From assembly GCA_038043525.1 (NCBI GenBank), contig JBBTBW010000006.1, positions 77,442 to 141,441 of the forward strand: a stretch of 64,000 bases of DNA, given 5' to 3'. Shown in pieces: positions 18,302 through 47,615 of this stretch. This stretch comes from Deltaproteobacteria bacterium (GTDB taxonomy: Bacteria; Desulfobacterota; GWC2-55-46). The position numbers and the translations under genes were made by a program. Position 1 is the stretch's first letter. Each line of letters begins with the position of its first letter. Under the pieces are notes generated by a model. The model had not been told where the DNA came from, searched no databases, and saw only the letters and a list, made by a program, of their open reading frames with translations.

Positions 18302-18379
<78 letters not shown>

Positions 18380-24475: not shown

Positions 24476-25237
24476 CTATTCCAGGTCTATCGTCATTCCG
24501 TCGTAGGCGAGCTCGACTCCCTTAGGCAGAAGCCCGTTGTCTCTCTCGTAGTCGAGGCCGTGGCCGAGGTGCGTAAGGAGCGTCCGCCCGGGTTTGAGCA
24601 TGCCGGCGACCTCTATCGCTTGCTCTATCGTAAAATGCGTTGGATGCGGCTTGTGCCTGAGAGCGCCTATGACAAGGACCTCGATCCCTTCAAGCAGCCT
24701 GATAGATTCGGCAGGTATCGAGCTGCAGTCAGTGACGTACGCGGCTTTGCCTATGCGGTAGCCGAGTATCTGCGCCCTTCCGTGGTATATGTCTATCGGG
24801 GTGATTTTAACGCCTGCCGCTTCGAACGGCCCTGACACCTCAGAGGCCGTAAGGTTGGGCTTCCATCCATCCATGCCGTCGTCGGAGAATATGTAGTCGA
24901 ACATGGTCTTTATGCGCCCTATCGTGAAGGGGTTGCCATAGCATGGTATGGCGTCTTTTTGCACCATGTTGAAGGACCTGAGGTCGTCTATGCCGTGGAT
25001 ATGGTCTGCGTGGGGGTGCGTGAAAAGGACTGCGTCTACCCGCTCGACCCTGTTGGCGAGCGCCTGGGTCCTCAGATCTGTGGATGTGTCTATCAGGAGG
25101 TTCTTGCCGCAGGTATGAACGAGCAGGGATGACCTTGTGCGCTTGTTGCGGGCGTCATCCGAGGAACATACTGTGCAGTGGCAGCCTATGACTGGCACCC
25201 CTGTGGAAGTGCCGCATCCAAGTACGGTCAGTTTCAT
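24476..25237 (-). CDS. MBL-fold metallo-hydrolase (PhnP/ElaC-like)
   Basis: HPHADHIHG metal-binding motif, 253 aa. Confidence 0.8.
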   Translation of the reverse strand: MKLTVLGCGTSTGVPVIGCHCTVCSSDDARNKRTRSSLLVHTCGKNLLIDTSTDLRTQALANRVERVDAVLFTHPHADHIHGIDDLRSFNMVQKDAIPCYGNPFTIGRIKTMFDYIFSDDGMDGWKPNLTASEVSGPFEAAGVKITPIDIYHGRAQILGYRIGKAAYVTDCSSIPAESIRLLEGIEVLVIGALRHKPHPTHFTIEQAIEVAGMLKPGRTLLTHLGHGLDYERDNGLLPKGVELAYDGMTIDLE

Positions 25238-27734: not shown

Positions 27735-28757
27735 ATGACTAAGGCTGTAGCGCTACTATCCGGCGGGCTTGACAGCACGCTTGCGGTAAAAATGATGATC
27801 GAGCAGGGCATCGAAGTCTATGCCCTCAACTTCACCTCGGCTTTTTGCACCTGCAACAGCGGTGGGAAGCACCCGGGCGCCGAGGGCGGCGGGTGCAGGA
27901 GTGAGTCCAGGCGGGTCGCCGAAGAGTTCGGTATATCGATAAAGGTCATGTACAAGGGCACGGACTATATAGAGATAGTCCGTAACGCCAGACACGGCTA
28001 CGGCAAGGGGATGAACCCGTGCGTCGACTGCCGGATATATATGTTCAAGGCGGCTAAGGAGTATATGCAGGAGATTGGCGCCTCTTTCGTAATAACCGGA
28101 GAGGTGCTGGGTCAGAGGCCCATGAGCCAGAGGAAGGATGCCTTCAGGATTATAGAGCGTGAAAGCGGCCTTGAAGGGCTGATATTGAGGCCCTTGAGCG
28201 CGAAACAGCTGGAGCCGACCATCCCGGAGACGAGCGGCCTCGTCGACAGGGAGAAGCTCCTTGACGTTCTGGGTAGGTCGAGAAGACAGCAGATAGACCT
28301 TGCCGAGGAGCTCGATGTAAACGACTATCCGTGCCCGTCAGGGGGATGCCTCCTTACCGACAAGATATTCTCAAAGAAAGTGAGGGATCTCCTCGGCCAC
28401 AAGAAGGACGTTACAAAGAGGGACTTATCACTCTTGAAGTCAGGCCGCCACTTCAGGTTCGAGGGCGTCAAGATAGTCATCGGAAGGAACGAGGCTGACA
28501 ACGCAAAGATCAAGGCCCTTGCTCTCGCCGAGGAGACACTGATGGAGCCGTCGGGCTTTTCAGGCCCAGTAGCCCTTATCTGCGGGGAGGCTGGCCCTGT
28601 CGTTACGGCCTTTGCCGCCGGGCTTGTCCTTAGGTACGCGCAGGATAAATCAGTTGAAAAGAAGAGCTTTAACGTCACTGTAAACGGCATCACATCTGTC
28701 TTTGAGGCTGACGTAGCTGTTGAAGAGAGCATGATAGACGAGGTCAGGGTATGTTGA
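27735..28757 (+). CDS. PP-loop ATP-pyrophosphatase, ThiI/MnmA-like sulfur transferase lacking a THUMP domain, Cys-rich
   Basis: SGGLDS PP-loop at residues 9-14. NPCVDCRIYMFKAAKEYMQEIGASFVITGEVLGQ resembles the ThiI/MnmA catalytic region. Additional Cys clusters are present (CTCN, CPSGGC). Confidence 0.6.
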   Translation: MTKAVALLSGGLDSTLAVKMMIEQGIEVYALNFTSAFCTCNSGGKHPGAEGGGCRSESRRVAEEFGISIKVMYKGTDYIEIVRNARHGYGKGMNPCVDCRIYMFKAAKEYMQEIGASFVITGEVLGQRPMSQRKDAFRIIERESGLEGLILRPLSAKQLEPTIPETSGLVDREKLLDVLGRSRRQQIDLAEELDVNDYPCPSGGCLLTDKIFSKKVRDLLGHKKDVTKRDLSLLKSGRHFRFEGVKIVIGRNEADNAKIKALALAEETLMEPSGFSGPVALICGEAGPVVTAFAAGLVLRYAQDKSVEKKSFNVTVNGITSVFEADVAVEESMIDEVRVC

Positions 28758-29659
28758 AGTCAGGGGCTGAGATCGTTGAAAAGACAGCGGTAATCCTTGG
28801 TGCCGCGCTTGACGCTGAGATCGAGGCGGCGGCAAAGGGGCCGGAGGCAGGGGCGCTTGAAAAGCTCGAAGGGCTTAAAAAAATACTGTTGGAGATGCGC
28901 TCTGTACTTGTCGCTTTCTCTGGCGGGGTCGATTCGTCGTTCCTTCTGAAGGTCGCTGTTGACACGCTCGGGGACAAGGCCGGGGCGCTTACAGCGACCT
29001 CGCCGACCTATCCTGAGAGGGAGTTCAATGAGGCCTGCTCCATCGCTGCGAGTCTGTGCGTAAGGCACATAGTGGTCGAGTCCAACGAGCTTGAGATACC
29101 CAACTTCGCGGATAATACAGACAAGAGATGCTACTACTGCAAGAGCGAGCTCTTTCAGATATCGCGTGAAAAGGCGACAGCCTTCGGTTTTGATAACGTA
29201 GCTGACGGCTCAAACGCAGACGACCTGAAGGACTATAGGCCCGGCAAGACCGCCGCAAAGGAGCTTGGCGTCAGAAGCCCTCTGCAGGAGGCCGGCCTCA
29301 ACAAGCTGGAGATAAGAGCTCTTAGCAGGGAGCTGGGGCTTGCTACATGGTCGAAGCCATCCTTTGCCTGTCTTTCTTCCCGCTTCCCATACGGCACCCG
29401 TATCACCGAGGAGAGGCTCGATAAGGTCAGCAGGGGAGAAGAACTTCTCCACGGCCTCGGATTCAGGCAGTTCAGGGTAAGGTATCACGGCGATACTGTC
29501 CGCATCGAGGTCGCCCCTGAACATATAGGTACGTTCCTCTCGGATGACGTCAGGTCCAGTGTCGTGGAAGGATTTAAAGAGATAGGCTTCATATATGTGA
29601 CGCTCGACCTGCAGGGGTACAGGACAGGGTCGATGAACGAGGCGCTGCCGAGGTCGTAA
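28751..29659 (+). CDS. LarE-like PP-loop ATP-dependent sulfur transferase (COG1606 family)
   Basis: SGGVDSS PP-loop after an N-terminal helix. CYYCK plus a third Cys (FACLSSRF) as in Fe-S-type LarE homologs. Overlaps the upstream gene by 7 nt. Confidence 0.6.
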   Translation: MLKSGAEIVEKTAVILGAALDAEIEAAAKGPEAGALEKLEGLKKILLEMRSVLVAFSGGVDSSFLLKVAVDTLGDKAGALTATSPTYPEREFNEACSIAASLCVRHIVVESNELEIPNFADNTDKRCYYCKSELFQISREKATAFGFDNVADGSNADDLKDYRPGKTAAKELGVRSPLQEAGLNKLEIRALSRELGLATWSKPSFACLSSRFPYGTRITEERLDKVSRGEELLHGLGFRQFRVRYHGDTVRIEVAPEHIGTFLSDDVRSSVVEGFKEIGFIYVTLDLQGYRTGSMNEALPRS

Positions 29660-29891: not shown

Positions 29892-32723
29892 TCAGATGCT
29901 TGGGTCTTCGGCGGCTTTTTTCGCTTCTTCTACCCAGTGCCTTGCATGGTGCTTTAATATGGACTTGAAAAACTCGCTCTCAGGGTTTAGCATCTCGTAG
30001 ACCGTAACCGGGGTCGAGGCCTCGAACCCCTTGAATATGACCTCGCCTGCCTTTACGAAGCCTTCTATCTGTTCTATCCCCCTTACGACAACCACCCCGA
30101 ACCGAAACTCCAGCGTCTCAGATGGAAAGAAAAAAGCCTCTCTGATCGACTCGTCAAAATCACTTGTATCGACGGTCTTTTTGAAGAACATCTTCGTGCC
30201 GCGCGTCTCTCTTATGTATGCGTCAAGGGCGCTTTCGCTGAGCGCCTGCCCTTTGTTGTAGATGTCGGTAGACGCGCTTATGAGCCTCAGTGACGTGAAC
30301 GCTTCGCCGGCTATAATCTTCCCGAGGTCGCTTAAAAACTCGTTGGCCATCACCTTGGACATCGCCTTCGCGGTAGCGGGAGTCCCCCGCGAGATCAGCT
30401 TCTCGAAGGCGTTTTCAAGCTCGGGAGGCATCTTTACGGAATAGGTCCTGTCGATATATATGTCGAAAGGATATTTTTTTTCGTGTTTATTCTTGAATCT
30501 TTCGTTCTCCAGCAACATCTCTAGTTTTGCCCGTACAAGCGGGTTTCTGCTCGTCCCTCTGGCCGCCTCGTTGATCTTCTCTCCGATCGAGACCCTGGCC
30601 GGCTCAGTGAACCCGTGTTGCGCTTCGATGACCATCTCTTCGGCCTTTGCCCCGTATGATATGTAAAGGCCTGCCTCCAGCTCGCCTTGGATGGCCGCTT
30701 CGAGCTCGTCCCTGTAGATGTTCTCCAGCCTGTGCTCTTCTTCTCCAAGGGCTACGAGCCTTGATTCGACCACCGGCTCTTTCCTTTCGATCATGAAGTG
30801 CAGCTCGGCCCTTCTATTCTTGAGGTCCTGCTTGCGCGTTTCGAACCTTTTGTTGACCTCTTCAAGCTTTGCCTCGTCATTCGCAGGCGGTAGTTTCCTG
30901 ATGAGCTGGTCCCGGTAGTTACGCGTTATCTTCTGCAGGTCCCTTGCCAGGGCGACGAGATAGCTGACCCCTCCTGAGAATATGGCGGCGTCGCCCGGAA
31001 GGTTCGTGAGCCTAATGCCCCGCTCATCGGCTATTACACCCATGCCGACCTTGTAACCGCTGGCGGCCTTCAGGATAGGCTTGTAGAAGTGGTCCTTCAT
31101 GAACTCGGCCATCGCGATCTCTTTGACCTTGAGCGTCTTTCTCGTGAAGTCTTTCATGTCGATGAAGAGCTGGCCTTCTTCTTCAAGCTCGAGGGTCTTC
31201 AGAAATGGCCTGTCGTCCGTTGAAAACCTGTAAAGCCTGCCTCTGTTGTATTCTTCGAGGAGCATGTTGGCGCCAAACTCTCCCCTTCTGTCCGCCATGC
31301 ACAGGCGCATGGCGCTTGAGTACTTTTCAATGTGCTCATCAAGGCGGAACGCGTAAAAACCGGAGAGAAAACCGTGGAGGGCAGTGAACTCCTCTTTCCT
31401 TGGAGAGCGCAGGAGTCCGCCGAATACCGACCTTTTGAAAGAGGCGAGGTAGCGCTGGAATGCCGCTATGGATTCGCTCCCTGCCGGGTCCTTTACAAAC
31501 CTCTCTCGCACGTCATCGAGCGCTTTGGACAGGTTTGCCGTCTGCTTGGGTTCGGCGAGCAGATTCCTTATCAGGCGGTCCTCGCCGAGTACGGAGTAAA
31601 GTATGTCTCTTGCCTCGCTCCCGGGAATGTCGAGGTCCATCAGGTGCGCTATCGCCTCCTGTCTGAACCTGATGATCTCGCCCTGTTGTCTGAGAGCGTC
31701 GATGCACTCGGCGTCTTCGAGGATCCTTTCCGCGGACATCTTTATAAGGCCTGCCGCGCTCTCGGTATCATTGGAAAACTCCGAGCCGAAAGGCTCGATA
31801 AGGCTGTATATGGCGGCATTGATGCCGTAAGGATTCTGGGAGTTGGACAAGACGGTCGAGGGTATCGCCGCGAAAGCCCTTGGGGTGATCGCGGAGGTTA
31901 TCAGAAGTTCGGTCGATGGGTTGTAAAACGACGCTCCGGATTCCTTGAGCCTGGAGAAGAGATCGGCTACAGCCCCTGAAAACGCGAGGAAGAGCGACAT
32001 GCCAACGGCCAGGTCGATCTTTTCGTAGGTAAGCCCCTTTATCTTACAGCCCTTGATCCGTTCCTTTTTCTTCCGGAGCGTGCCTAATATGGAAAGGAGG
32101 GCGAGGTACGAGGTCTTTTCCTCGCCGGAGAAGCGAGCCTCTTCCTTGAGCGTCTTTTCAAATATGTCAGAGACCCACTTGATGAACTTTTTGCCGTGGC
32201 CTTCCGGTCCGAACCAGTTCAGGAGTATCGCGCTGTCGATGTACGGGACGGAGCAGATGATCTCGGAGGCGAGTTTTTTTTCGATAGACCCGGTGATGAA
32301 GATATCCGTCCGGTAGGTCTTGTCTTTGAGAGGTTGCGCGGTCTGAGAAAACGGCAGAGGCTGAGCGGCTCCTTCCATCAGCCCTTCGCTTGACCCCAAG
32401 CCTTCGTAGCGCTTGGCAAGCATGGCTATAAGGCTCGATATGGCGTTGTCTATGCAGGCTTCATCGTCCGCACCCATGTGGTACGGGACCTTCAGCTCTG
32501 CTATCGACTCGCCGTGCCTGAACCTCATCCGCGTCGGCTCAAGCATCCACGGCCTGCCGTTTACTATGTCCGCGCTCTTTTTAAGGAGCGTATCAAAGAG
32601 CGCCAGGCGCTCCCTGCTGTAATCTTCAGGCATGTCGATACCAGTTTTTGCGTTGGGTGGCGAACCATGCTGTCTCTTTTGATACAGCTTATAATACTTG
32701 TCTTTGTAAAGCAAGTTTGACAT
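29892..32723 (-). CDS. Large hypothetical protein (943 aa) with a central class-III nucleotidyl-cyclase-like palm domain interrupted by a coiled-coil insertion
   Basis: LFIDMKDFT (metal Asp 1), LPGDAAIFSGG (metal Asp 2) and, after about 100 aa of coiled coil, TEPARVSIGEKINEAARG. This last segment aligns to the cyclase YDVWGDTVNLASR motif. The N-terminal 500 aa and C-terminal 200 aa are unassigned. Confidence 0.5.
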   Translation of the reverse strand: MSNLLYKDKYYKLYQKRQHGSPPNAKTGIDMPEDYSRERLALFDTLLKKSADIVNGRPWMLEPTRMRFRHGESIAELKVPYHMGADDEACIDNAISSLIAMLAKRYEGLGSSEGLMEGAAQPLPFSQTAQPLKDKTYRTDIFITGSIEKKLASEIICSVPYIDSAILLNWFGPEGHGKKFIKWVSDIFEKTLKEEARFSGEEKTSYLALLSILGTLRKKKERIKGCKIKGLTYEKIDLAVGMSLFLAFSGAVADLFSRLKESGASFYNPSTELLITSAITPRAFAAIPSTVLSNSQNPYGINAAIYSLIEPFGSEFSNDTESAAGLIKMSAERILEDAECIDALRQQGEIIRFRQEAIAHLMDLDIPGSEARDILYSVLGEDRLIRNLLAEPKQTANLSKALDDVRERFVKDPAGSESIAAFQRYLASFKRSVFGGLLRSPRKEEFTALHGFLSGFYAFRLDEHIEKYSSAMRLCMADRRGEFGANMLLEEYNRGRLYRFSTDDRPFLKTLELEEEGQLFIDMKDFTRKTLKVKEIAMAEFMKDHFYKPILKAASGYKVGMGVIADERGIRLTNLPGDAAIFSGGVSYLVALARDLQKITRNYRDQLIRKLPPANDEAKLEEVNKRFETRKQDLKNRRAELHFMIERKEPVVESRLVALGEEEHRLENIYRDELEAAIQGELEAGLYISYGAKAEEMVIEAQHGFTEPARVSIGEKINEAARGTSRNPLVRAKLEMLLENERFKNKHEKKYPFDIYIDRTYSVKMPPELENAFEKLISRGTPATAKAMSKVMANEFLSDLGKIIAGEAFTSLRLISASTDIYNKGQALSESALDAYIRETRGTKMFFKKTVDTSDFDESIREAFFFPSETLEFRFGVVVVRGIEQIEGFVKAGEVIFKGFEASTPVTVYEMLNPESEFFKSILKHHARHWVEEAKKAAEDPSI

Positions 32724-36707: not shown

Positions 36708-38639
36708 CTACAGGGACCTTGCGAATGATCTTGCGGCCTTGAACAGGTATATGTTCTCGTTGGAGTCCTGCATATTGGTCTCGTTCAGAATGTACCTGTG
36801 ATCAAGCGAGAAGAGCCATGCCCGGAGCGGATAGACCAGGCTGTTTTGAATGGTAGACGTCCTTGTGAGCTGCCTGTCTTCGCGTTTCTCCGATATGCTT
36901 GAATCAAACTTCCAGGCCATGAGACCTAAAAGAGGCCTGTTGTAACTCGCCCGATACATGGCGGTAGAAGACCTGTCGTTGCCGCCGGCGTATTCGCGCT
37001 CAGTGAGCCTGTATGAAGCGGATAGCTCAAGCGGGCCGCCAAAGAGCACGCTGTTTTGCGAGATGTTCACGCCCTCGGTATCTACGGTTATCCATCCGTT
37101 GGTATCATTGAAAGTCTTGAGGCGCTCGGCGAACCCGGTAAGCGCGGCTGTTTTGAAGAGGTTTGTGCTGGTATCGAGCCTGTATGACTCGGACCTCTGG
37201 TCCATGCCTTCGATCCAGCTTGATGTAGAGCTCTTGTTGGCGCTGCCTGAGACCGAAATATGCTCGACGAAGGCCTTGTTGAAGAAGCTGAGATTGTAGG
37301 TCCTGGTGTTCGTGTTCGTCTTTCCGGTCGTCGATTCGCTCTCGGAAAACGATGCCGACGTGTTAAATCCGATATATTTGTTGAAGTTTATATTGCCCAG
37401 GCTTACCCCGCCGCTTTGGCCTACGGCGGTGCCTTTCTCTTCTCCTACCTCTTCTTCGATGTACGTGCCGCCGTAGGATATGCCCAAAGACGTCCAACTG
37501 AAGGAATCGCCATAGCTGGCTGTTGTAGTGGATGAGAAGGTCTTGTAGTCGCTTGTATTGGTGGATGTGGAATCGCTGGAGTTTGTCTGGCTGTTATTGT
37601 AGTTGACGTTTTCGGAGAGGGATATCGTCCTAGTCAGCTTGTATGTGACGCCTCCGCTTGAGGAGTTGCCGGAAGACTTGCTCTGAGAGCTCTCTGTCTC
37701 GCTCTCGGACTTGTTAAACCCCACAGAGGCACTTGTAGACAGCTCTTTTGAGATGTTGTATGACATGTTTCCTGAATAGGTCGACCCGTTCATGCGCCCG
37801 TCGTCAGAGGTCTTGTAGGCAGAATAGGCATGATGCTGTTGGAAGTCCCTGCTAGGCGCGGAGTTTAGCGAGAAGGAGTAGCCTTCATGCGCTGATTCTC
37901 CGTTTCTGCTGTTCTGTGAGTCGCTCCTTGATCCTCCCGCAGAAAAGGATGTGTTTTTGGAGACTTTGGTTCCGTGGGTCGCGTTTATCTGCCGGGTTGA
38001 CGATCTGTCTCCGGAGCTTGACTTGCTCTCGTTTTTGCGCAGAAATACCTCGTTGGTCGTAGGTCCTATGTCCTTGTCGATGTTCAGGTTAGTAGCGGTA
38101 GTATTATTCTTTGAATTGGCTGATTCCGTCTCCGTGCTGTCGATGGTCAGCTGGAGCTTGGGGAGCTTGGTTGTAAGAAGACGCCACTCGAGCCCGTAGC
38201 CGGTGGTTGTGCCTTTATTCGTGCCGCCGCCGCTGCTGCTTGTGCTCTCTTTTCTTGTCCCGTGCAGGGTCAGCGGGATAGCGGAGTTCGGCAGGATCGT
38301 GGTCTTTACGCGATAGTCAATGTCATCGGTCTCCGTCTCGCTTCCGTTTGTGTCCTGGTTGACGGTTGTGTAAGTAACATTGGCGTCGTATATGAAGACC
38401 TTTCGGGAGACAAGGTTCCCTATAGTGTCAAGCTTATAGCGTTCCGTGAAGTGTGAGTTCTTTGTTTTGTACTGGTCGGTGATGAAGTTTGCTTTTTCGT
38501 ATTCCAGGTATATAGTGCCGGTAAGCGTCCTGTATAAGTAGGGATCCTCTTCGACGCTTAAGCCTTTTGCGGGATAAAAAAGCACCGACGCAAAGGCGGC
38601 TAGAAGCGTTGCCAAATATGTCCATCTGCCGCGGAACAT
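36708..38639 (-). CDS. Secreted Ser/Thr/Asn-rich protein, putative outer-membrane beta-barrel
   Basis: Signal peptide, extreme S/T/N/G bias, alternating hydrophobic patterns typical of amphipathic beta strands, and aromatic residues near the C-terminus. Confidence 0.4.
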   Translation of the reverse strand: MFRGRWTYLATLLAAFASVLFYPAKGLSVEEDPYLYRTLTGTIYLEYEKANFITDQYKTKNSHFTERYKLDTIGNLVSRKVFIYDANVTYTTVNQDTNGSETETDDIDYRVKTTILPNSAIPLTLHGTRKESTSSSGGGTNKGTTTGYGLEWRLLTTKLPKLQLTIDSTETESANSKNNTTATNLNIDKDIGPTTNEVFLRKNESKSSSGDRSSTRQINATHGTKVSKNTSFSAGGSRSDSQNSRNGESAHEGYSFSLNSAPSRDFQQHHAYSAYKTSDDGRMNGSTYSGNMSYNISKELSTSASVGFNKSESETESSQSKSSGNSSSGGVTYKLTRTISLSENVNYNNSQTNSSDSTSTNTSDYKTFSSTTTASYGDSFSWTSLGISYGGTYIEEEVGEEKGTAVGQSGGVSLGNINFNKYIGFNTSASFSESESTTGKTNTNTRTYNLSFFNKAFVEHISVSGSANKSSTSSWIEGMDQRSESYRLDTSTNLFKTAALTGFAERLKTFNDTNGWITVDTEGVNISQNSVLFGGPLELSASYRLTEREYAGGNDRSSTAMYRASYNRPLLGLMAWKFDSSISEKREDRQLTRTSTIQNSLVYPLRAWLFSLDHRYILNETNMQDSNENIYLFKAARSFARSL

Positions 38640-38911: not shown

Positions 38912-39727
38912 TTATTTCGACCAGGCGCAACGGAAGCCGACGTCATCGAAGAGGCCTTCCGGTGGGGCGGCGTTCCTGAACGCTGTCCGCACATATACCT
39001 GAAGGTTGTAGTGTCCCATGCCACCCCAGCCGCCGCCGCGCACGACCTTGAACTTCTCGCCGTAGTCCTTGTCGTTAAAGTCGTTTCCGGGATACTGCTT
39101 GTACCAGTCGGAGGTCCATTCCTGCGCGTTTCCGGCCATGTCAAGGAGACCGTACGGGCTCTTGCCTTCTGTGAAAGTACCTACGGGAGTCGTCCCTCCG
39201 TAGGCGCCAAGCGTGTTTACTTTTTTGTCATCGAATTCCGCGCCCCACGGGAACCTGTTGCCGTCAGTACCTCTGGCGGCCTTTTCCCATTCAAGCTCGG
39301 TCGGCAGGCGCTTGCCTTTCCACTGGCAGTAGTCCTGAGCGTCGTACCAGCTGACAAGGATCACAGGGTGGTCGGCGATCTGCGCCGGGTATCCGTTAGC
39401 CCATCCAGCCGGGAGCCTGTGGCTGGTCTTGTCTGCGAACTCCTTGTACATGGCGTTCGTCACTTCAGTCTTATCTATGTAGAACTCGCCTATCGACTCT
39501 TTCCTCTCAGGCCTCTCGTTTGCGTACCAAGGCCGCCTGTCGCCGTACTGGAGCGCCTTTGCCTCTTTATCTACCTCGTTGCTGCCTACGATAGCATCGC
39601 CCTTTGGGATCTGTATCATGTCCTGAGGCGGTTTCTTGCATCCGAACGGCAGAAGAAGTATTGCGGATAGGAAGAGTATTTTAAGGCCTGTCCTTCCAGC
39701 GATAGACTGCATTATTGAGACCTCCAT
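38912..39727 (-). CDS. FGE-sulfatase (SUMF1/EgtB/PvdO) domain lipoprotein
   Basis: WYDAQDYCQWKGKRLPTELEWEKAARG...RGGGW matches the FGE-sulfatase domain signature. N-terminal lipobox PFGC. Confidence 0.75.
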   Translation of the reverse strand: MEVSIMQSIAGRTGLKILFLSAILLLPFGCKKPPQDMIQIPKGDAIVGSNEVDKEAKALQYGDRRPWYANERPERKESIGEFYIDKTEVTNAMYKEFADKTSHRLPAGWANGYPAQIADHPVILVSWYDAQDYCQWKGKRLPTELEWEKAARGTDGNRFPWGAEFDDKKVNTLGAYGGTTPVGTFTEGKSPYGLLDMAGNAQEWTSDWYKQYPGNDFNDKDYGEKFKVVRGGGWGGMGHYNLQVYVRTAFRNAAPPEGLFDDVGFRCAWSK

Positions 39728-39923
39728 GGGAATATTGCATATTGAGATACGATCCGGCGAAGCCTGCGACAGGTAGCCGCAAAGGCCCTGAGCTCATTGG
39801 TTTTTACCCGCGTTCAGGCGGCTTTAATGCCCTCATCTCTTGCCCTCCTTAAAAAGAGGGCAGGGGACGGCGCTTGTTTCGCGTCGTAAAAACCTCTGTG
39901 GCCGGATAGAGTGCGCGCCTTAT

Positions 39924-40946
39924 CTATTTTGCACCGGTAGCGCACCTGAACCCGAAGTTGTTGTTCCTGGTGTGCGGGTGAAAAAATATTCTATTGTAAG
40001 CAGGCGAGCTTATCCCGCACTTGTAGTTTGTGCAGTCGAACCATGACCCGCCTCTTAGGACCTTGAACTTCTCCCCGTAGTTTTCATCCGAGTGGGTATT
40101 GCCTGGGTAGGGCTTGAACCAGTCGTCTACCCATTCGAATGCGTTTCCGGCAAGGTCATAGACGCCGTACGGGCTTTTACCGCTCTCGAAGCTGCCTACC
40201 TGCATGGTGTCTTCGTTGCCGAACTGCGGAGTATTACCTTTGTTCTTGTCGAACTGGTCCCCCCACGGGAACGTTCTTTTGTCTGTGCCTCTGGTGGCCT
40301 TTTCCCACTCGCGTTCTGACGGGAGCCTCTTGCCCTCCCACTTGCAGAAGGCATCAGCGTCATACCAGCTCACGAATACTACGGGATGGTACTCTTTGCC
40401 TTCCGGTATCCTGCCGTCTGTCCAGTGGCCCGGAGCTTTAACCTTGCCGGCATCTACAAATGCCTTATACCGCTTGTTCGTGACCTCATACCTGTCTATA
40501 CGGAAGGCGCCGAGGCTTTCCTTGTGTTCCGGCTGGCTCTTGGGCCACCAGTCGTTAGAACCCATCGTGAACTCGCCGGCAGGCACAAGCGCCATCTCAT
40601 TAAACTGTCTGGCAGATCTCTTTTTTACAGCGCTCATGACCGGTGTCGCGCCGTCCGCGCTGCTCGCCACCATGAATCCGCCTTTAGCGTCATGAGGCGT
40701 CCTGAACCTTTCGTTTATGCTTACATAATTTTCGCTAAGCCCCGGGCCGTGGCATCCTACGCATGTCTCGTCTCTTGTATAATCCGTTGAGTAGCGTCTC
40801 TCCGGAGTGTGGCAGTCCATGCATTTGGGCTCGCCTGTGACCGGGTCGTAATCGCCGCTTTGGGCCCCTGCCTGGTGCGCATAGGCAAAAAGGCCTAAGG
40901 CCAGCGCGAATGCCGGAACAATGGCATACTTGATCTTTTTCTTCAT
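39924..40946 (-). CDS. Dihaem cytochrome c fused to an FGE-sulfatase (SUMF1-like) domain
   Basis: Signal peptide, CMDCH and CVGCH haem-binding motifs, then WYDADAFCKWEGKRLPSEREWEKATRG...RGGSW. Start placed at ATG 40946 with an AGGAAA RBS. Confidence 0.7.
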   Translation of the reverse strand: MKKKIKYAIVPAFALALGLFAYAHQAGAQSGDYDPVTGEPKCMDCHTPERRYSTDYTRDETCVGCHGPGLSENYVSINERFRTPHDAKGGFMVASSADGATPVMSAVKKRSARQFNEMALVPAGEFTMGSNDWWPKSQPEHKESLGAFRIDRYEVTNKRYKAFVDAGKVKAPGHWTDGRIPEGKEYHPVVFVSWYDADAFCKWEGKRLPSEREWEKATRGTDKRTFPWGDQFDKNKGNTPQFGNEDTMQVGSFESGKSPYGVYDLAGNAFEWVDDWFKPYPGNTHSDENYGEKFKVLRGGSWFDCTNYKCGISSPAYNRIFFHPHTRNNNFGFRCATGAK

Positions 40947-41000
40947 GATATTTTCCTGTGCTAGGGCGGCAGACTGCAAAAGTCTTACCCGCCAGGATGG

Positions 41001-41486
41001 TTACTTCTTTGATTCCTCGGCCTGTTTGCCTTCGCGTTCAAGTTGTCTTATGAAGGCCAGCACCGACCACCTCTCTTTTTCCGAGAGTATATCTGCCCAT
41101 CTCGGCATCGACATCGCCTCACCGCCGATTTCCTTGTGTATGCCTAAGGTGATGGATTCATACAACTCATTATCCGTCTTGGACATCCTCTTAGTGTCGG
41201 CTACGAAATCAGCAGGGTGCGGCGTGAGCGCGATGCCGACAGGGCCGTCGCCGCGGCCCTTCTGTCCATGGCAGAAGTGGCAGTACCTGAAGTAGATCTC
41301 TTTTCCAACGACAGTATCGGCTGACGCCTGTGTCGCTGCTTGGCTCGTTACTGTCTGCGGTCCAGTCGCGGCCTTCTCTTTTTTACCGTCTCCGGGCGAA
41401 CATCCGTAGAGTGCCGCTGAGCCGATCAGTAGCACTAACAATGCCGGAAGCCGCGCGGCCGGATAGAACGATCTCTTTATTTTCAT
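41001..41486 (-). CDS. Monohaem class I c-type cytochrome
   Basis: Signal peptide with lipobox-like LYGCS, haem site CHFCHG and a distal Met (SMPRW). Confidence 0.7.
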   Translation of the reverse strand: MKIKRSFYPAARLPALLVLLIGSAALYGCSPGDGKKEKAATGPQTVTSQAATQASADTVVGKEIYFRYCHFCHGQKGRGDGPVGIALTPHPADFVADTKRMSKTDNELYESITLGIHKEIGGEAMSMPRWADILSEKERWSVLAFIRQLEREGKQAEESKK

Positions 41487-41551
41487 GATATGAAGCCCTT
41501 TTCCTGATGGTCTTGCAACCATGCCCGTCCATTATTTCGTATCCAGCCGCC

Positions 41552-42586
41552 CTATTTCTTGTCGAGGTATTCGATCTTGGCGACGCTTTTCATCTCTGTT
41601 ATCCATGCATTCCAGAGCATCTTCTGTTCTTTTGACTCGAGTTCCTTTTCGAGTTTTTCCTTGTTCAGATCTTCAAACTTCTTTTGTGTGGAGACCTTCC
41701 GATCTACCAGCTTGACTATGTGATAGCCGTATATGGTTGAGACAGGCTCGCTGACCTCGCCTGGCTTCATCTTTTCGGCGGCCGCGTCTATCTCATCGAA
41801 GAGGCTTCCTTTGTGCGCCCAGCCCATGTCGCCGCCGTTCTTGGCGTTGGGGTCTTCAGAGTGCAGCTCTGCGATCTTGGCGAAGTCCTCACCGGCCCTT
41901 ATCTGCTTGAGTATGTCCTGCGCCTTTTTAAGAGAGGCGTTCCATGCCTTTTGACCGCCTGACGGGTCGGCCTTTATAAGGATAGACTTCAGGTGTATCT
42001 GTTCCGGCTCCTTGAACTTGGCGAGGTTCTTGTCGTAGTAAGCCTTCATGAATGCTTCGTTTACGGCGTTTTCGGCTTTTTTCTTGAACTCCTCTATCTT
42101 CTTCTGCGAGACGCGGGCTACGAGTATCCCCATCTTCATGTCAAGTTTGAGTTCATCCATCGTCATATTGCTTCTTTTAAGGACGGCCTCGAGCTTATCG
42201 CCTTTGGGCAGGTTTTTCTTTATCACAGCTATCTTGGCGTCGACCTCTTTTGCCTTTACGTCGTCCATCTTATTCTCAACGGCGTACTTGAAGATCAGCT
42301 CGTTGGTGACGATTTTTTCAAGGGCCTGGGCGCGGATCTGCTTGAGGCGCTTCTCGCTGACGGATGAATGGTACGATACGATCGGCATGAGGTTGTTTAT
42401 GGCTATCTCGAGGTCCTCTTTGGTTATGTCCCTGCCATTGACCCTGGCTACGATCTCAGGCGTCCTGGCTGAGACGGCCGCCGGTGCGTCTTTTGCTTGC
42501 ACTGACTCCGCACCGTAAAAACCTGCCGGCGAGAGCAGCATTAGAAAGACGGACATTGCCAACGTTTTTCTGGAAAGATAGGCCAT
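41552..42586 (-). CDS. SurA/PpiD-like periplasmic chaperone with a parvulin PPIase domain
   Basis: Signal peptide, a chaperone domain and a C-terminal parvulin motif GGDMGWAHKGSLFDEIDAAA...GYHIVKL. Confidence 0.75.
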   Translation of the reverse strand: MAYLSRKTLAMSVFLMLLSPAGFYGAESVQAKDAPAAVSARTPEIVARVNGRDITKEDLEIAINNLMPIVSYHSSVSEKRLKQIRAQALEKIVTNELIFKYAVENKMDDVKAKEVDAKIAVIKKNLPKGDKLEAVLKRSNMTMDELKLDMKMGILVARVSQKKIEEFKKKAENAVNEAFMKAYYDKNLAKFKEPEQIHLKSILIKADPSGGQKAWNASLKKAQDILKQIRAGEDFAKIAELHSEDPNAKNGGDMGWAHKGSLFDEIDAAAEKMKPGEVSEPVSTIYGYHIVKLVDRKVSTQKKFEDLNKEKLEKELESKEQKMLWNAWITEMKSVAKIEYLDKK

Positions 42587-42909
42587 TTCGATACCTCCGA
42601 TTTTAATGACTGCTGATTATAATATAAAGTCATGTAAATATAAAACTAAAAAAACAAAGGCTCAGGCTTGAAAAATCTCCGCAATCTGACGCCTGTCTAT
42701 TGTATTCGGAGACCTTTAAATGCGTATTAGTCTTAAATTAAAAATTTTTAATGGGAGGCAGGCCGCTCCAGCGTTCTAAGGCCCGAAAAAACCTCACTGT
42801 AAGTACCTATCGGCTCTGACAGATAGATAATTGAGGAAAATCTGGGCACGGTCTTTCAGCCTTTAAAAAGCAGAGATAACCCATCTTCGATCGTCTGCCG
42901 GTATAGAAA

Positions 42910-42936
42910 AGGAGGGCCGAGAATCGGCCCTCCTTT
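42910..42936. terminator. Intrinsic terminator hairpin, A-run upstream and T-run downstream (bidirectional)
   Basis: aaaa ggagggccgagaatcggccctcc tttt. Confidence 0.6.
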
Positions 42937-42944
42937 TCTGATGC

Positions 42945-43620
42945 GCTATGCGGTTTTGACGCCGCAGAGTTTTTTTTACTTGTTGCGGCAGGTTCTGCAG
43001 AGGCCTGAACCGGAGTTGCCGCTGACCCTTCTGAGGAAGAGACCGTTGGACTCTTCTTCAAGATCGAGCACCGCTACGTTCGTGTAGGTGGAATCCACCT
43101 CGTTGTACACTTGTTGTTGAAGTGCGGGTCGTGGCAGGAAGGAGCATAAAGGAGGCCGACGAGCAGGCTCGGTATCTACTCAGTGCGGGTTCAAGTTTGC
43201 AACTTGAACCCGATAATTCGTCAAGGCGCATTTTGAGATTTATGGAGCAGGTTGCAAACCTGCTCCCGCCATAGGCGTAGACAAGGTTCCGGCCTTTGAA
43301 TTTATCCTTTGTCTTGAAACAAACCCGGGCCATGGCGTAGCGAGCCTGACTGAGAGACGACGAGCAGGCGGCGGGTGTGACCCGCCCTACCGCCTGAAAG
43401 AGAGCGATGCGAGTCATACCCAAAAAGCCGCACGGAAGTGCAAAGCTAAAATCAGACCTATATTTTTTGCAAGGGGCCGTTAGAGCCAAACCAGAAGCTC
43501 ACGGTGGTGCGCAAAAAGAAAATCAGCAAATACATGACCGCTGGAATAGTTGCTTTGTCATTGGCGTCAAACAAAACCCGGACCGTGGCGTAACGAGCCG
43601 TATTAAGCTCAAGTAAGAAA
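42945..43620. repeat. Gene-free region of about 0.7 kb with internal direct repeats and multiple hairpins; candidate structured ncRNA locus
   Basis: The motif aaacaaa(a)cccgg(g/a)cc(a/g)tggcgta(g/a)cgagcc occurs twice, at 43316 and 43567. Hairpins are ggagcaggttgcaaacctgctcc, ggcgggtgtgacccgcc and the palindrome cgggttcaagtttgcaacttgaacccg. No ORF with an RBS is present. Confidence 0.5.
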
Positions 43621-43648
43621 GGGGCGGCCATTGATGGCCGCCCCTTTT
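43621..43648. terminator. Strong intrinsic terminator (GC-rich 10-bp stem plus T4)
   Basis: ggggcggccattgatggccgcccctttt. It serves the NHL gene on the minus strand and any plus-strand transcript from the upstream region. Confidence 0.7.
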
Positions 43649-43669
43649 GAGATCAAAATATAAAGTCTG

Positions 43670-44728
43670 TTACTTCTTCGCCGGTGCGGCTGATGCTGCG
43701 GCCCGTGCCTTAGACTTCTCGCCGAGGAATTCAAATACCTCGACCCTTCTGTTCCATGAGTCGACGATATATATATAGTCGTTTTTGTCTATCGCCGCGC
43801 CGGAAGGAAGCACCATCTGACCGCGCTCGTTGCCGTAGCTGGCGAACGGCAAGAGGATCTGGCCCTCATCATCGAAGATCTGTACGTTGTTGAAGGCCGA
43901 GTCCACGACATAAACATGGCCTTCGCTGTCTACAGCGATGCCTTTAGGCCGCGCGAACATCCCTGCGGCATCGCCGAACTGGCCGAAGGCCCGTATGAAC
44001 TTGCCCTCGGAATCGAATATCTGCACCCTGCCGTTCATCGTATCTACTACGAATACCCTGCCTTTGGGGTCGACCGTTATGTTAGATGGAAAGTTGAAGT
44101 GGCCTTCCTCTTTGCCGCGCTTCCCGATAGTCCTGATAGGCTTGAGCGTTTCAAGGTCGAAGACCCGTATGTCATGCGTGTGCGTGTCCGTTACGTAGAG
44201 CTTCTTGTTGATGTTGTCGGATATTATCCCCGTAGGCTGCTTGAACGGGACATCAGGTGTGATGTTGGTGATGAATTTGCCGCTCGCGTCATAGATCGCG
44301 ACCTTGTCGTCTTGCGAGTCGGTGACGAATATCCTGCCGATGTGGTCGACTGTGACGCCTATAGGCTTGTAAAGGGTCCGAACCCCGCCCATCTCCGAGA
44401 GTGTAGTGGTGGTCTTTTTCTCGGGATCGATTATGAACACGTCGCCAGCGGCCGTATCGGTAACATAGATGCGGCCCTTGTCGTCTGCATATATGCCGTT
44501 TGGCTTTTTAAGGGCTGACGAGGCCTCGGCGCCAAGTAGTATGTCTGCCGCTATGGAGGACTTTTTGAAGTCCAGGTTATCGCTCCCCCTGTAATCCCTT
44601 AGGTATTTTATGCGGGGCTCGTCAGGAGGCGCCGGCCAGTACAGGTCCGGGAGAGGAGGGGCCGCACAGCCGTATACGATAATTGGCAGAGCAACAAGCA
44701 TCAACAGCTTTTTCAGGGTGGCCTTCAT
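43670..44728 (-). CDS. NHL-repeat (six-bladed beta-propeller) lipoprotein
   Basis: Lipobox VYGC and repeated NHL units (YVTDT, FVTDS, YVVDS, YIVDS). Confidence 0.75.
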   Translation of the reverse strand: MKATLKKLLMLVALPIIVYGCAAPPLPDLYWPAPPDEPRIKYLRDYRGSDNLDFKKSSIAADILLGAEASSALKKPNGIYADDKGRIYVTDTAAGDVFIIDPEKKTTTTLSEMGGVRTLYKPIGVTVDHIGRIFVTDSQDDKVAIYDASGKFITNITPDVPFKQPTGIISDNINKKLYVTDTHTHDIRVFDLETLKPIRTIGKRGKEEGHFNFPSNITVDPKGRVFVVDTMNGRVQIFDSEGKFIRAFGQFGDAAGMFARPKGIAVDSEGHVYVVDSAFNNVQIFDDEGQILLPFASYGNERGQMVLPSGAAIDKNDYIYIVDSWNRRVEVFEFLGEKSKARAAASAAPAKK

Positions 44729-44904
44729 GTACTGATCCCTCGCTTTATTGACTGCCGGCGGTCTTTTTTGATATTTCTAACAAGTCGTTCCGTCGGCGGT
44801 ACACTGTTTTTTCAGATAATATTTGGTAACGATGTTTGGATTTTACTATGCCGTTCCGTTTAAAGTCAAGACTTGTATTGGTCCATTGGGATAGTCAAGG
44901 CGTC

Positions 44905-45534
44905 TTATCTCCACCGTTCCCTCTCCATAGACTGTCCTTTAAGCACTATATGGCATCTTATGCAGTTCTCCCTCGGCCAGAAGGTGAAGGCGACCTTGCC
45001 GTGGCATCTGCCGCACCATTGGCCCTGGAATATCTCGTCCATGCTTATCGGGTTGGCGCCGGCCTCAGGGATGAATATCTTTGGATGGCAGTTGTTGCAA
45101 CTCAGCCAGTATGTATGTATCGAGTGAGGAAAAAGGACGTTTGCCATAAGCGGCACCTTTGCCTCAATGAAGATGTTGAGGTGTAAAGGGGCGTCTTCCT
45201 CCACGCCTGGCTCGATGGCGCTCTTCGGGTTAATGTAACCCTGGACAACCGCAGCCGTCCAGTTGACCTCGCCGGCTGTATCTTTTGGAAGCGAGTCAAG
45301 GGCCTCTATCTCGGTCGTGCCGGGCCTGATAGAGGATCTCCTGGCTACCTCTTTGTAAAAGTTCTCGTAATAGTCGTCGAAATTTTGAGGAGGTGCTACA
45401 ACCGGCTTGCTTACATCGGTGCTGACGAGCTGGTCTATGGACTCGCCAAGCCCGCACCCTGTCAATAAGAAAAGGGAAATGACTGCCGCAGCGGCGAGGG
45501 GGAGCGCGTTGAGGTATCTGAAAAATGCTTTCAC
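44905..45534 (-). CDS. Trihaem c-type cytochrome lipoprotein
   Basis: Lipobox LTGC. Three CxxCH motifs (CNNCH, CGRCH, CIRCH) packed into the C-terminal 60 residues, as in c7/c3-type cytochromes. Confidence 0.75.
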   Translation of the reverse strand: MKAFFRYLNALPLAAAAVISLFLLTGCGLGESIDQLVSTDVSKPVVAPPQNFDDYYENFYKEVARRSSIRPGTTEIEALDSLPKDTAGEVNWTAAVVQGYINPKSAIEPGVEEDAPLHLNIFIEAKVPLMANVLFPHSIHTYWLSCNNCHPKIFIPEAGANPISMDEIFQGQWCGRCHGKVAFTFWPRENCIRCHIVLKGQSMERERWR

Positions 45535-45689: not shown

Positions 45690-46910
45690 ATGTCAGAACA
45701 AAAGGTTATATGGTCATTCGGCGGCGGTAAGGGCTTGATAGAAAAAGGCGTTGCCGTCGCTAATATCGCGTGCGGCCTCGCGCTAAGCGGAGCGCGTGTC
45801 CTTCTTGTCGATGCCGATCCGCTCGGCACAGGAATGCATACCTTTTTCAGCGACGAGAAGCCCTCCTACGGGTTCGATGACTTTCTTAGCGGCAGTGTGG
45901 CAAGCCTGGCGGATGTCTCTTGGGAGACTGGTGTTGACGGCCTTAGGCTGGTATCCGTCGGCACCGGGTTTTTGAGGCTGGCCGACCCGGATTTCCCCAT
46001 GAGAAAAAGGCTTTTAAAAGAGGTTTGGGACCTTGATGTCGGCTATATACTCGTAAACCTCGGTTCAGGCGCTTCCGGGGACATACTTGATTTTTTCTCT
46101 CTGTCAGATGAAGGGATTATTCTCCTTTCGCCAGAGCCTGTGTCAGTCCAGGGCGGGTTTGATTTTCTCAGGGGTTTTGTCTACAGGCGGTTAGCGATCA
46201 TCTTTTCAGATGATCTCGCTGTCTCGGCCCTTATAAGCGAGGCTACAGACGCGAGGGGGCATAACCCGGTAAAGACTTTTTCAGACCTGTGCGAGCGGAT
46301 AGCATCCGTTGACAGGGATGGCGCGCAAAAGGCTATATCGGAAATAAAAAGGTTCGCTCCGCAGTTGCTCCTGAATATGGGTGGCGCTCAGGAAGATGTC
46401 GGTGCGCCAAGCGCCCTTGCTTCAGTCTCAAAGAGGTTTTTGGGTCTCGATACCGGCTTTATCGGGACCATCCATTCAGGGACCGGGGTCGGCTCCGCCG
46501 GAAGGGCGCGTCTGTTCATGCTCGACGGCGGCGAAGCAGATGCGAGCAAGGAAATCGAAGACATTATCTCTTCCCTTATCGGAGAGCGGCAGGAAGCACC
46601 TGTGCCGGTACAATCTATTGTTGGTTCAGGTCCTGGCGCACAGGCGCAGGTCCAAGAGGTGTTCGGTTTTAATGACAACGTATATCATGAGGACTCGGTC
46701 ATGCACGTCCAGACAGAGGTGCAGGGCGGAGAGGACCCGTCCATAGAGACGATCATCTATCATGGCGGAAGGATATTTTTCTCAAAAAAAACACTCTGGT
46801 CGTCTCTTGCCCCTGAAGTGGTAAGCGCTGGGATCAAGGACTTCGCTACGCGCCAGCACAGGGTCGCGATAGCCGCGATAAAACTGAATAAAATAAGTTT
46901 CAAAGGTTGA
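45690..46910 (+). CDS. MinD/ParA-superfamily protein with a degenerate Walker A and a long C-terminal extension
   Basis: SFGGGKGLIEKGVAVANIACGLALSGARVLLVDAD parallels MinD/FlhG (KGGVGKTT...LxDxD), but the P-loop is non-canonical. Confidence 0.5.
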   Translation: MSEQKVIWSFGGGKGLIEKGVAVANIACGLALSGARVLLVDADPLGTGMHTFFSDEKPSYGFDDFLSGSVASLADVSWETGVDGLRLVSVGTGFLRLADPDFPMRKRLLKEVWDLDVGYILVNLGSGASGDILDFFSLSDEGIILLSPEPVSVQGGFDFLRGFVYRRLAIIFSDDLAVSALISEATDARGHNPVKTFSDLCERIASVDRDGAQKAISEIKRFAPQLLLNMGGAQEDVGAPSALASVSKRFLGLDTGFIGTIHSGTGVGSAGRARLFMLDGGEADASKEIEDIISSLIGERQEAPVPVQSIVGSGPGAQAQVQEVFGFNDNVYHEDSVMHVQTEVQGGEDPSIETIIYHGGRIFFSKKTLWSSLAPEVVSAGIKDFATRQHRVAIAAIKLNKISFKG

Positions 46911-46913
46911 TCT

Positions 46914-47615
46914 ATGGGCGCTTTAGTCGGTCTCTTAGGCGGTTCGTTCGAGTTTATAAGCAGGTTTGCAGATCTTTTGCGGGACTGCGGGTTTGATCCG
47001 GTGGTCGGACCGTCCGATGCCGGGCTGTCCAGGGCAGGCGAGGTAAGTATTTATGAGGTCACTGACAGGTCTGTTTGCGAGTCGCTCCTTGAAAAGGACG
47101 GCACAGAACCGTTCTTGGTCTATTCGGACCTTCAATTTACCCCTGAGGAGCTTGTCTCGCTCAAGGCAAAGGGATTTGTAGGCGCGATAACGACAAGGAC
47201 CTCGCCGGAGGATACGGCATTCCTTGTGAATAAGGCGCTTTTTTACTCCAGGATGTTAAAGAGGAATCCGCGCGTTCCGGTAAGCCTGCCGGTGGAGCTG
47301 TCTGTAGGGGTAAGGGTATTAAAGACAACCGCCTCGATGCTCAGCAGGGACGGGATCTTCGTCATCACGATGAACCCTCTGCCGGTAAACTCGCTCTGTG
47401 ATCTTGCATTCAGACTGCCAGGGCCAGAGCATACCTTTAAGACCGTATCAAGAGTCCTGTACAATATAACCATCAACAAGGAACTGGGCATAATCGCAGA
47501 CCCGAGGGACCCGTTCAAAAGGCTTGTGGCGCATCCCGGCATGGCAATGCTCTTCGTTGATATGAGCGTTGATGACAGGGCGCTGATAGAGGCGTATATA
47601 GAGACTATCTCCTGA
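46914..47615 (+). CDS. PilZ-like (non-canonical) domain protein
   Basis: KRNPRVPV...TASMLSRDGIFV approximates the PilZ RxxxR/DxSxxG motifs with substitutions. Lies 4 nt after the MinD-like gene. Confidence 0.35.
   Translation: MGALVGLLGGSFEFISRFADLLRDCGFDPVVGPSDAGLSRAGEVSIYEVTDRSVCESLLEKDGTEPFLVYSDLQFTPEELVSLKAKGFVGAITTRTSPEDTAFLVNKALFYSRMLKRNPRVPVSLPVELSVGVRVLKTTASMLSRDGIFVITMNPLPVNSLCDLAFRLPGPEHTFKTVSRVLYNITINKELGIIADPRDPFKRLVAHPGMAMLFVDMSVDDRALIEAYIETIS

Follow-up and report, generated by a model that had tools for sequence, protein, structure and literature searches.

Class III nucleotidyl cyclases are the enzymes mainly responsible for cAMP and cGMP production; those of Pycsar systems produce cCMP and cUMP. 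The base that they accept is specified by a pair of residues, Lys/Asp(Thr) for ATP and Glu/Cys(Gly) for GTP. An N-x3-R helix and the motif F-x-D-x-x-G/D-F-T are signatures of the class III cyclase homology domain (CHD), not of GGDEF or Cas10 proteins, and CD-NTases have a Pol-β-type fold distinct from the class III palm. The closest described systems to the protein analyzed here are the catalytic domains of bacterial homodimeric class III adenylyl and guanylyl cyclases, at 13–20% identity, exemplified by Pseudomonas aeruginosa CyaB (PDB 3r5g), Synechocystis Cya2 (2w01), Mycobacterium tuberculosis Rv1900c (1ybt), Spirulina CyaC (1wc1), and Mycobacterium avium Ma1120 (4wp3). Pycsar pyrimidine cyclases (PycC; BcPycC 7r65, AnPycC 8jsz, and EaPycC 8jsf) are a related known system, and a P. 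aeruginosa transcriptional regulator with a class III cyclase-like ATP-binding domain (6yii) is also listed among the closest.

The gene was located in the window, the whole 64,000-nucleotide stretch of DNA that was analyzed, as an uninterrupted open reading frame at 29892..32723 (943 codons plus a stop codon at 29892–29894). The list of open reading frames and the translation confirmed the 943-aa frame given in an earlier, sequence-only reading, which was silent on strand, and placed it on the minus strand, as are all features described below. A Shine-Dalgarno-like AAGGA lies 7 nt upstream of M1, a better match than that of the alternative start M31 (32631–32633), upstream of which no obvious sequence of this kind was found. 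Use of M31 would yield a 913-aa form, the length of the NCBI entry for the same gene (MEK6759129.1), and the majority of homologues begin at its equivalent. Residues 1–30 (32634..32723) form a non-conserved N-terminal extension (column identity 0.03) that is disordered in the structure model (pLDDT below 50). No strong transmembrane segment was found in the 943-aa protein.

The protein had been described as an orphan, which proved incorrect: 97 homologues were present in a set of 5.8 billion proteins, an exhaustive search returned 294 representatives of 50%-identity clusters, and 65 loci were found across 64 GTDB species-representative assemblies. Full-length homologues occur in these 64 assemblies, 63 of which carry a single locus. 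Carriers include Thermodesulfobacteriota and Myxococcota, and the family is kept in uncultured sulfate-reducer-like bacteria. Searches of Pfam, NCBIfam, PADLOC, and PDB sequences, the last with both phmmer and a profile, assigned no family to any part of the protein, in agreement with the earlier statement that its N- and C-terminal regions match nothing recognizable. Literature searches found no description of the family and nothing on a “GPMC system.”

For the fold, a template-free structure model (mean pLDDT 81) was searched using Foldseek, as had been suggested for the palm domain, and a class III CHD was matched with a probability of 1.0 and E ~0.02; 142–185 residues could be superposed onto single-domain CHD chains of 167–254 residues. 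Because the fold tools omit the matched query residues, the match was placed at residues 476–780 from the order of secondary-structure elements and from hhalign. The element order in the model, β1-α1-α2-β2-β3-α3-[insertion]-β4-β5-β6-α4-β7-α5, is that of the CHD, with β1-α1-α2-β2-β3-α3 in the first half (residues 476–611; 30891..31298) and β4-β5-β6-α4, an extra helix, β7, and α5 in the second (residues 682–780; 30384..30680). Against a deep CHD profile (120 PF00211 proteins and 6 mammalian C1/C2 domains), hhalign gave P = 1.1e-3, which improved to 1.6e-4 once the insertion was deleted from the query, with both Asp residues in register; with an insertion-free member as reference, P = 2.6e-4 was obtained over 118 columns, again with both Asp in register. 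This profile–profile similarity covers the first half (β1–α3; P = 1.6e-4 to 1.3e-3, 76–118 columns). The second half (residues 676–790) gave no significant hhalign alignment to the CHD (E = 0.15–0.5), and hhalign with a shallow profile of 7 sequences (6 mammalian domains and the bait consensus) was not significant. PF00211 itself gave no match even at E up to 10 for this protein, 16 family members, and 9 diverged long variants, and per-member Pfam scans of the same 16 members and 9 long variants returned neither cyclase nor GGDEF matches. The suggested alignment to PF00211 therefore held for the first half by hhalign, but not for the second half and not as a direct Pfam match. The fold match, the hhalign register of both Asp residues, and their conservation support the class III cyclase-like palm first read from the sequence; we regard the fold, together with the alignment register and conservation of both Asp residues and the existence of the gene and its family, as established.

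Conservation was counted among 74 full-length diverged members, down to ~20% identity, and the three motifs were present where they had been claimed. Motif 1 (FIDMKDFT, residues 520–527; 31143..31166) is the counterpart of the canonical F-x-D-I-x-G-F-T, and a canonical-looking D-L-K-G-F-T occurs at this position in 24 of the 74 members. Its D522, invariant (74/74), lies at the end of β1 in the model and matches the CHD profile at its first Asp, making it the putative first metal-binding Asp. Motif 2 (LPGDAAIFSGG, residues 575–585; 30969..31001) contains D578, which lies in the β2–β3 hairpin, just before β3, and is Asp in 69 and Glu in 2 of the 74 members; the G-D of the motif aligns to the G-D of K-T-I-G-D-A-Y-M in the CHD profile, and the second metal-binding Asp is putatively D578. 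Both metal-binding contexts proposed earlier thus matched the two Asp residues of the profile by hhalign and were conserved. Motif 3 (RVSIGEKINEAARG, residues 710–723; 30555..30596) contains N-x3-R at the start of α4, a helix that begins at E715 in the model, after β6, and G-E-K-I-N-E-A-A-R fits the pattern G-x-x-V-N-x-A-x-R at the start of this helix. N718 (66/74), R722 (68/74), G723 (74/74), and R726 (73/74) are well conserved. Motif 3 was equated with GxxVNxAxR because of motif identity, conservation, and position at the start of the post-β6 helix; N718 and R722 are thus putative transition-state residues in a register that we infer from these features rather than from statistical alignment, and one low-confidence hhalign path shifts the Asn/Arg motif by ~4 residues. 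The β4 phosphate-binding Arg of CHDs is not conserved in the family.

The base-specifying positions were assigned from the motif register. The canonical Lys/Glu position corresponds to N574 (D578 minus 4), with Asn in 61 of the 74 members and Ser in 7, and the second position to V711, with Val in 65 and Ile in 7. The canonical pairs Lys/Asp(Thr) and Glu/Cys(Gly) are not conserved, and a conserved Asn574/Val711 takes their place; therefore, neither substrate nor product can be read from the sequence.

The insertion between α3 and β4 (residues 612–681; 30681..30890) had been described as a charged coiled coil of ~100 residues that splits the palm. It is indeed highly charged (44% Asp, Glu, Lys, or Arg), but is ~70 aa long and modeled as an antiparallel two-helix hairpin (helices 615–646 and 652–679, where protein numbering is model numbering plus 1), and a true coiled coil goes beyond what was shown. 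Its length varies among family members (3–170 aa), and “split” is overstated: the insertion does fall in the palm, in the α3–β4 loop, but because of this loop position and its reduction to ~3 residues in some members, it is best considered accessory rather than defining. On either side of the CHD, residues 33–473 (31305..32627) form an all-helical N-terminal domain not assigned to a fold family, a putative regulatory or sensor module, and residues 781–943 (29895..30383) form an α/β C-terminal region. Residues 884–912 (29988–30074; ...GEVIFKGFEASTPVTVYEML) may be a displaced terminal β-hairpin of the CHD; hhalign of residues 800–943 against the CHD was not significant (E ~0.2).

The explanation that we favor, with moderate confidence, is that residues ~476–780 constitute a very diverged class III nucleotidyl-cyclase CHD, interrupted in the α3–β4 loop by a hairpin of variable length, within a cytosolic member of a ~900-aa, vertically inherited family without prior characterization. 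From the cyclase-type center we infer that the protein probably makes a nucleotide signal, the sense in which it had been called a novel signaling-nucleotide synthase. By analogy with canonical class III cyclases, two CHDs would pair head-to-tail, with D522 and D578 of one subunit holding two Mg2+/Mn2+ ions on the NTP triphosphate, and N718 and R722 in α4 of the partner positioning the ribose and stabilizing the transition state. Attack of the 3′-OH on the α-phosphate would then release pyrophosphate and form a nucleotide that is cyclic (or otherwise transferred), with the conserved ~440-aa N-terminal helical domain most likely controlling activity. A more specific version, which we consider doubtful, is that of an active cyclase whose Asn574/Val711 pocket accepts a substrate that is neither ATP nor GTP and which makes a non-canonical messenger (e.g. 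a cyclic pyrimidine or some other unusual product). In Thermodesulfobacteriota and Myxococcota this messenger would then carry a chromosomal, housekeeping signal gated by an undescribed ~440-aa helical sensor domain.

Other readings of the palm were weighed against this one. The same fold could serve a different chemistry, either as a GGDEF-, Cas10-, or mCpol-like synthase whose oligonucleotide products are linear or cyclic, or as a GTP-cyclohydrolase-III-like hydrolase, which we judge to be unlikely: GGDEF diguanylate cyclases and Cas10/mCpol palms scored 3–4 Z units below class III CHDs in both models, and the protein carries N-x3-R and F-x-D-x-x-G/D-F-T. The reported absence of a GGDEF signature was corroborated, with neither a GG[DE]EF motif nor a Pfam GGDEF (PF00990) match found and with L-P-G-D-A-A-I-F in place of the motif, and neither a GGDD motif nor a CRISPR or CARF-type context was detected. 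A speculative link to CD-NTases (CBASS) was not upheld, as no CD-NTase was among the fold matches and neither a Pol-β-like fold nor a GS...[DE]x[DE] motif was found. A pseudo-cyclase, which we judge as unlikely as a different chemistry, would have a CHD-like domain that binds nucleotide or nothing and acts as a regulatory or scaffolding module within a large helical protein, comparable with the domain of 6yii. That the likeness to cyclases stems from short motifs matching by chance, or from an artifact of structure prediction, in a protein unrelated to cyclases, could draw on the modest Foldseek E value, pairwise hhalign probabilities of 18–51%, and a domain-only model with weak confidence in its core (pLDDT 40–60), but is very improbable. 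Given the length and composition of the protein, a permissive regex for the three ordered motifs, written post hoc, is expected to match ~2.5e-8 times, and co-occurrence of motifs 1 and 3, with regexes likewise written after the motifs were seen, was recorded 0 times in 200,000 shuffles; a chance origin of the triad is negligible.

Genomic context bears on a further rival, an anti-phage signaling cyclase of Pycsar or CBASS type in a defense island. The gene is surrounded by housekeeping functions, namely LarE, a PP-loop ATPase, TPR/HEAT proteins, an AI-2E transporter, and an M50 protease. An Apyc1-like MBL also lies nearby. Synteny is conserved across the whole lineage, with other contexts in distant members, and purine or biotin genes adjoin the family gene elsewhere. 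PADLOC returned 0 matches, no defense genes were found nearby, and no effector gene (TIR, TM, or CNBD) adjoins the cyclase-like gene. On this context the defense-island reading was rejected, and we consider it very unlikely. A single locus in nearly all assemblies, lineage-wide synteny, and purine or biotin neighbors are instead typical of a core gene inherited vertically. The only widely conserved neighbor is the LarE sulfur transferase, arranged tail-to-tail at 46 of 53 informative loci and missing in P0086 and in a Myxococcales relative; guilt by association with LarE was rejected on account of this convergent arrangement, these two absences, and the lack of a mechanistic link.

Pfam, NCBIfam, and PADLOC fail to detect the family, which comprises ~300 clusters at 50% identity and is therefore absent from every census of cyclic-nucleotide signaling. 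The catalytic core is retained, yet the base pocket is distinct and conserved, the helical insertion varies, and both flanks are uncharacterized. If active, the family would add a signaling enzyme, possibly with a new messenger or sensor domain, to poorly studied uncultured anaerobes and would warrant building a new profile model with which to annotate genomes; were the non-canonical messenger reading true, the family would provide the first role for such a messenger beyond phage defense.

Compared with class III CHDs, the family has a hairpin of 3–170 aa between α3 and β4, an extra helix after α4, and a terminal hairpin that may be displaced, and the base-specifying Lys/Asp or Glu/Cys is replaced by a conserved Asn/Val. 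Its flanks (~440 aa, helical, at the N terminus and ~160 aa at the C terminus) are not among the partner domains known from cyclases, such as HAMP, GAF, PAS, CHASE, or BLUF. Unlike Pycsar, the family has neither an adjoining effector nor a PADLOC PycC match and occupies a housekeeping, vertically inherited context, and the protein is much larger than PycC, with additional domains. Its specificity residues also differ from those described for UTP or CTP cyclases (PMC11224242).

The target gene occupies window positions 29892–32723 on the minus strand (32723→29892) as 943 codons without interruption, and its G+C content (0.538) matches that of the window (0.532). All three peptides quoted in the sequence-only reading were found in the product: FIDMKDFT (motif 1, residues 520–527), LPGDAAIFSGG (motif 2, 575–585) and RVSIGEKINEAARG (motif 3, 710–723). 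Residue numbers count from M1; in alignment A1 and the structure models the numbers are lower by one, the first codon having been clipped. Using permissive regular expressions written after the motifs had been seen, about 2.5e-8 occurrences of the ordered triad are expected for a protein of equal length and composition, and motifs 1 and 3 appeared together in none of 200,000 shuffles. No strong transmembrane segment was found in the protein. The start codon is ambiguous between M1 and M31 (window 32631–32723, minus strand): most homologues start at the equivalent of M31, as does the NCBI entry for this gene (MEK6759129.1, 913 aa, ‘hypothetical protein’, from a Deltaproteobacteria MAG), and residues 1–30 are not conserved and are disordered in the model, whereas a Shine–Dalgarno-like AAGGA lies 7 nt upstream of M1.

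For structural analysis, a template-free AlphaFold2 model was built from a 42-sequence alignment (mean pLDDT 81). A disordered tail (residues 1–31) is followed by an all-helical N-terminal domain (~33–473; pLDDT mostly 85–97), a central α/β region with the order β1-α1-α2-β2-β3-α3-[two long helices]-β4-β5-β6-α4-(extra helix)-β7-α5, and a C-terminal α/β region (~781–943). The palm domain proposed from the sequence was supported when the model was searched against the PDB with Foldseek: the top matches were almost exclusively class III adenylyl and guanylyl cyclases, including bPAC, Cya2, Rv1900c, CyaC, Ma1120, sGC and mammalian AC, with probability ~1.0, although E was only ~0.02. The central domain is almost certainly a true class III cyclase homology domain (CHD), though one that has diverged very far from the others.

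No part of the target was recognised by Pfam, NCBIfam, PADLOC, PDB phmmer or a PDB profile search, and individual scans of 16 family members and nine long variants gave no cyclase or GGDEF match. PF00211, the operational membership test for class III cyclases, was among the failures. CHDs for profile alignment were retrieved with a consensus-like CHD sequence, which served as bait only (E = 5e-64 to AC8) and recovered real mammalian C1/C2 sequences and 120 real PF00211 proteins. With a shallow CHD profile, hhalign gave E of 0.1–0.16, which is not significant, the motifs being already paired in the path. A deep profile could be aligned to the β1-α3 half at P = 1.1e-3, and at 1.6e-4 when residues 612–680 were removed; a more diverse family profile with the insertion-free member P0287 as reference gave P = 2.6e-4 over 118 columns. 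In every deep-profile alignment L-F-x-D522 lies opposite L-F-x-D of the cyclases, and G-D578-A opposite the G-D-A in K-T-I-G-D-A-Y-M, so that both putative metal Asp residues are in register. The second half alone (676–790) and the C-terminal region gave no significant alignment to CHDs (E 0.15–0.5). We therefore only infer that G-E-K-I-N718-E-A-A-R722 corresponds to the cyclase G-x-x-V-N-x-A-x-R; the transition-state role first read into motif 3 has in its favour the identical pattern including the N-x3-R spacing, the position at the start of the helix after β6, and strong conservation. Residues 884–912 (…GEVIFKGFEASTPVTVYEML) resemble the terminal CHD hairpin (…RGKVQAKGKGKLEMFFV), with which the best local hhalign path pairs them (E = 0.2). 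We suggest that they may be that hairpin, in which case a second CHD insertion of ~100 aa would be present.

Conservation was assessed across 74 aligned full-length members with identities down to ~20%. D522 and G723 are invariant, D578 is present in 69 (plus two Glu), and N718, E719, R722 and R726 in 66, 71, 68 and 73, respectively; K524 and T527 are kept in 65 and 68. At position 525, 46 members have Asp and 24 have Gly, so that one third of the family reads D-L-K-G-F-T, almost the canonical F-x-D-I-x-G-F-T. In seven of the most diverged members (P0234, P0284, P0315, P0332, P0340, P0345 and P0364), D522 is kept and several of D578, N718 and R722 are lost; these may be inactive, paralogue-like branches. 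Four residues before the second metal Asp, adenylyl cyclases carry Lys and guanylyl cyclases Glu. The cytidylate cyclase EaPycC has Arg there (R142 relative to D146; PMC11224242). The family has Asn574 at this position (61 Asn, 7 Ser) and Val711 at the second base-contacting position, seven before the Asn (65 Val, 7 Ile). From these residues the family is predicted to have its own conserved pocket, which fits none of the specificity classes characterised so far. The α3-β4 insertion, charged and helical in all length classes, measures ~70 aa in the target, not roughly 100 as first estimated; it spans ~3 residues in P0263, P0265, P0266 and P0287 and ~170 in Myxococcota-type variants. Given this range it is an accessory element in a permissive loop, and a ‘split’ domain does not define the family.

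Nor is the protein an orphan. A word-indexed search returned 97 homologues, nearly all full length (900–930 aa, 40–85% identity) and every one named hypothetical, from ‘Deltaproteobacteria’/Thermodesulfobacteriota MAGs plus two Myxococcales proteins at ~25–32% identity. When 1.84 billion cluster representatives were searched exhaustively with a profile, 294 matched at E ≤ 1e-3 and 170 at E ≤ 1e-30, among them ~1,000-aa variants, one from a Myxococcota MAG. GTDB species representatives yielded 65 loci in 64 assemblies, all uncultured and of groundwater, sediment or hydrothermal origin; 63 carry one locus each, and JACRNN01 alone has two, both partial. One member, P0086 (locus L003, 10001–12748), is labelled ‘phage pi2 protein 07’ by JGI, which looks like an annotation artefact since the genes around it serve purine and biotin biosynthesis and none resembles a phage gene.

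Divergent TPR and HEAT-repeat genes lie upstream of the target gene, and a convergent operon lies downstream. In this, a ThiI/MnmA-like PP-loop ATPase fused to an NFACT-R_2 RNA-binding domain (27735–28757, plus strand) overlaps by 7 nt the start of LarE (28751–29659, plus strand; 302 aa, no Pfam match, TIGR00268 at 3e-99, PDB 5udq at 4e-52), so the two PP-loop enzymes appear to share one operon; 43 related loci keep both genes together. LarE is an ATP-dependent sacrificial sulfur transferase in nickel-pincer cofactor synthesis. Among related MAGs it follows the target gene tail-to-tail in 46 of the 53 loci with enough flank, including the most diverged Thermodesulfobacteriota members, and at 59–77% identity it is better conserved than the target gene. 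It is not adjacent at P0086 or in the Myxococcales relative (neighbours glnA/P-II). No effector, CRISPR or other defence genes were found near the target, and PADLOC was negative. The conserved synteny, the differing context of distant members and the lack of defence neighbours are what one expects of a chromosomal gene that stands on its own and is inherited vertically.

Several other features of the window were recorded. An MBL-fold hydrolase (24476–25237, minus strand; NCBIfam ‘GPMC system MBL fold metallohydrolase’ NF038231, 6e-113) lies ~5 kb from the target gene, and 34 of 69 related loci have it; its orthologue in locus L001 (16983–17744) has a precomputed match to PF23023 Anti-Pycsar_Apyc1, a cyclic-nucleotide phosphodiesterase family. 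A role as a cNMP-degrading partner is conceivable, and so is coincidental synteny; a literature search found no mention of a ‘GPMC system’. A 643-aa ORF (36708–38639, minus strand) with no Pfam or NCBIfam match adjoins the TPR and HEAT-repeat genes and occurs in 17 related loci. A cluster at 38912–45534 (minus strand) encodes two FGE-sulfatase-domain proteins, a cytochrome c, a SurA-like PPIase, an NHL-repeat beta-propeller and a cytochrome c7-type protein. At 45690–47615 (plus strand) lies the gene for a MinD/ParA-like ATPase that ends in a RomY N-terminal-type domain (NF053858, 4e-15); a PilZ-domain protein is encoded directly after it, and the two may form a polarity, motility or c-di-GMP module. 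The only Rfam/ARAGORN RNA matches in the window were tRNA-Phe(GAA) (5427–5502, minus strand) and tRNA-Met(CAT) (18303–18379, plus strand).

Taken together, an active-type class III cyclase mechanism is the explanation we favour, and it is probably correct. By analogy with canonical homodimeric enzymes, two CHDs would pair head-to-tail, D522 and D578 of one domain holding two divalent cations and the NTP triphosphate, and N718 and R722 of the partner orienting the ribose and stabilising the pentavalent transition state. The base would be read by the Asn574/Val711 pair, the variable hairpin could modulate dimerisation, and the most evident candidate for a regulatory or sensory module is the N-terminal helical domain, which is strongly conserved. 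Since both metal Asp residues, the Asn and the Arg are kept, catalytic competence is expected. A non-catalytic, nucleotide-binding pseudo-cyclase (6yii-like) seems unlikely. It is similarly improbable that the same palm fold serves another chemistry, for instance oligonucleotide synthesis of the GGDEF/Cas10 kind or hydrolysis like that of GCH-III. A defence cyclase, against which the neighbourhood and the PADLOC result speak, merits very little credence, and we regard it as highly improbable that the resemblance to cyclases, modest as the Foldseek E value is, reflects chance or artefact.

Annotation has overlooked this family of ~300 clusters altogether; since its catalytic core is intact and its base pocket fits no class, it offers a concrete candidate, open to testing, for a new messenger or sensor. 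Our literature search found no description of it. The target is homologous to class III cyclases and is proposed to work alike, but it fails PF00211 and is without the canonical specificity pair. Its architecture combines a 440-aa helical domain without family match, a CHD whose helical insertion varies, and a C-terminal region without family match; no cyclase is known to have been described with this arrangement. Given the well-known diversity of class III cyclases, one more divergent branch is no great surprise.
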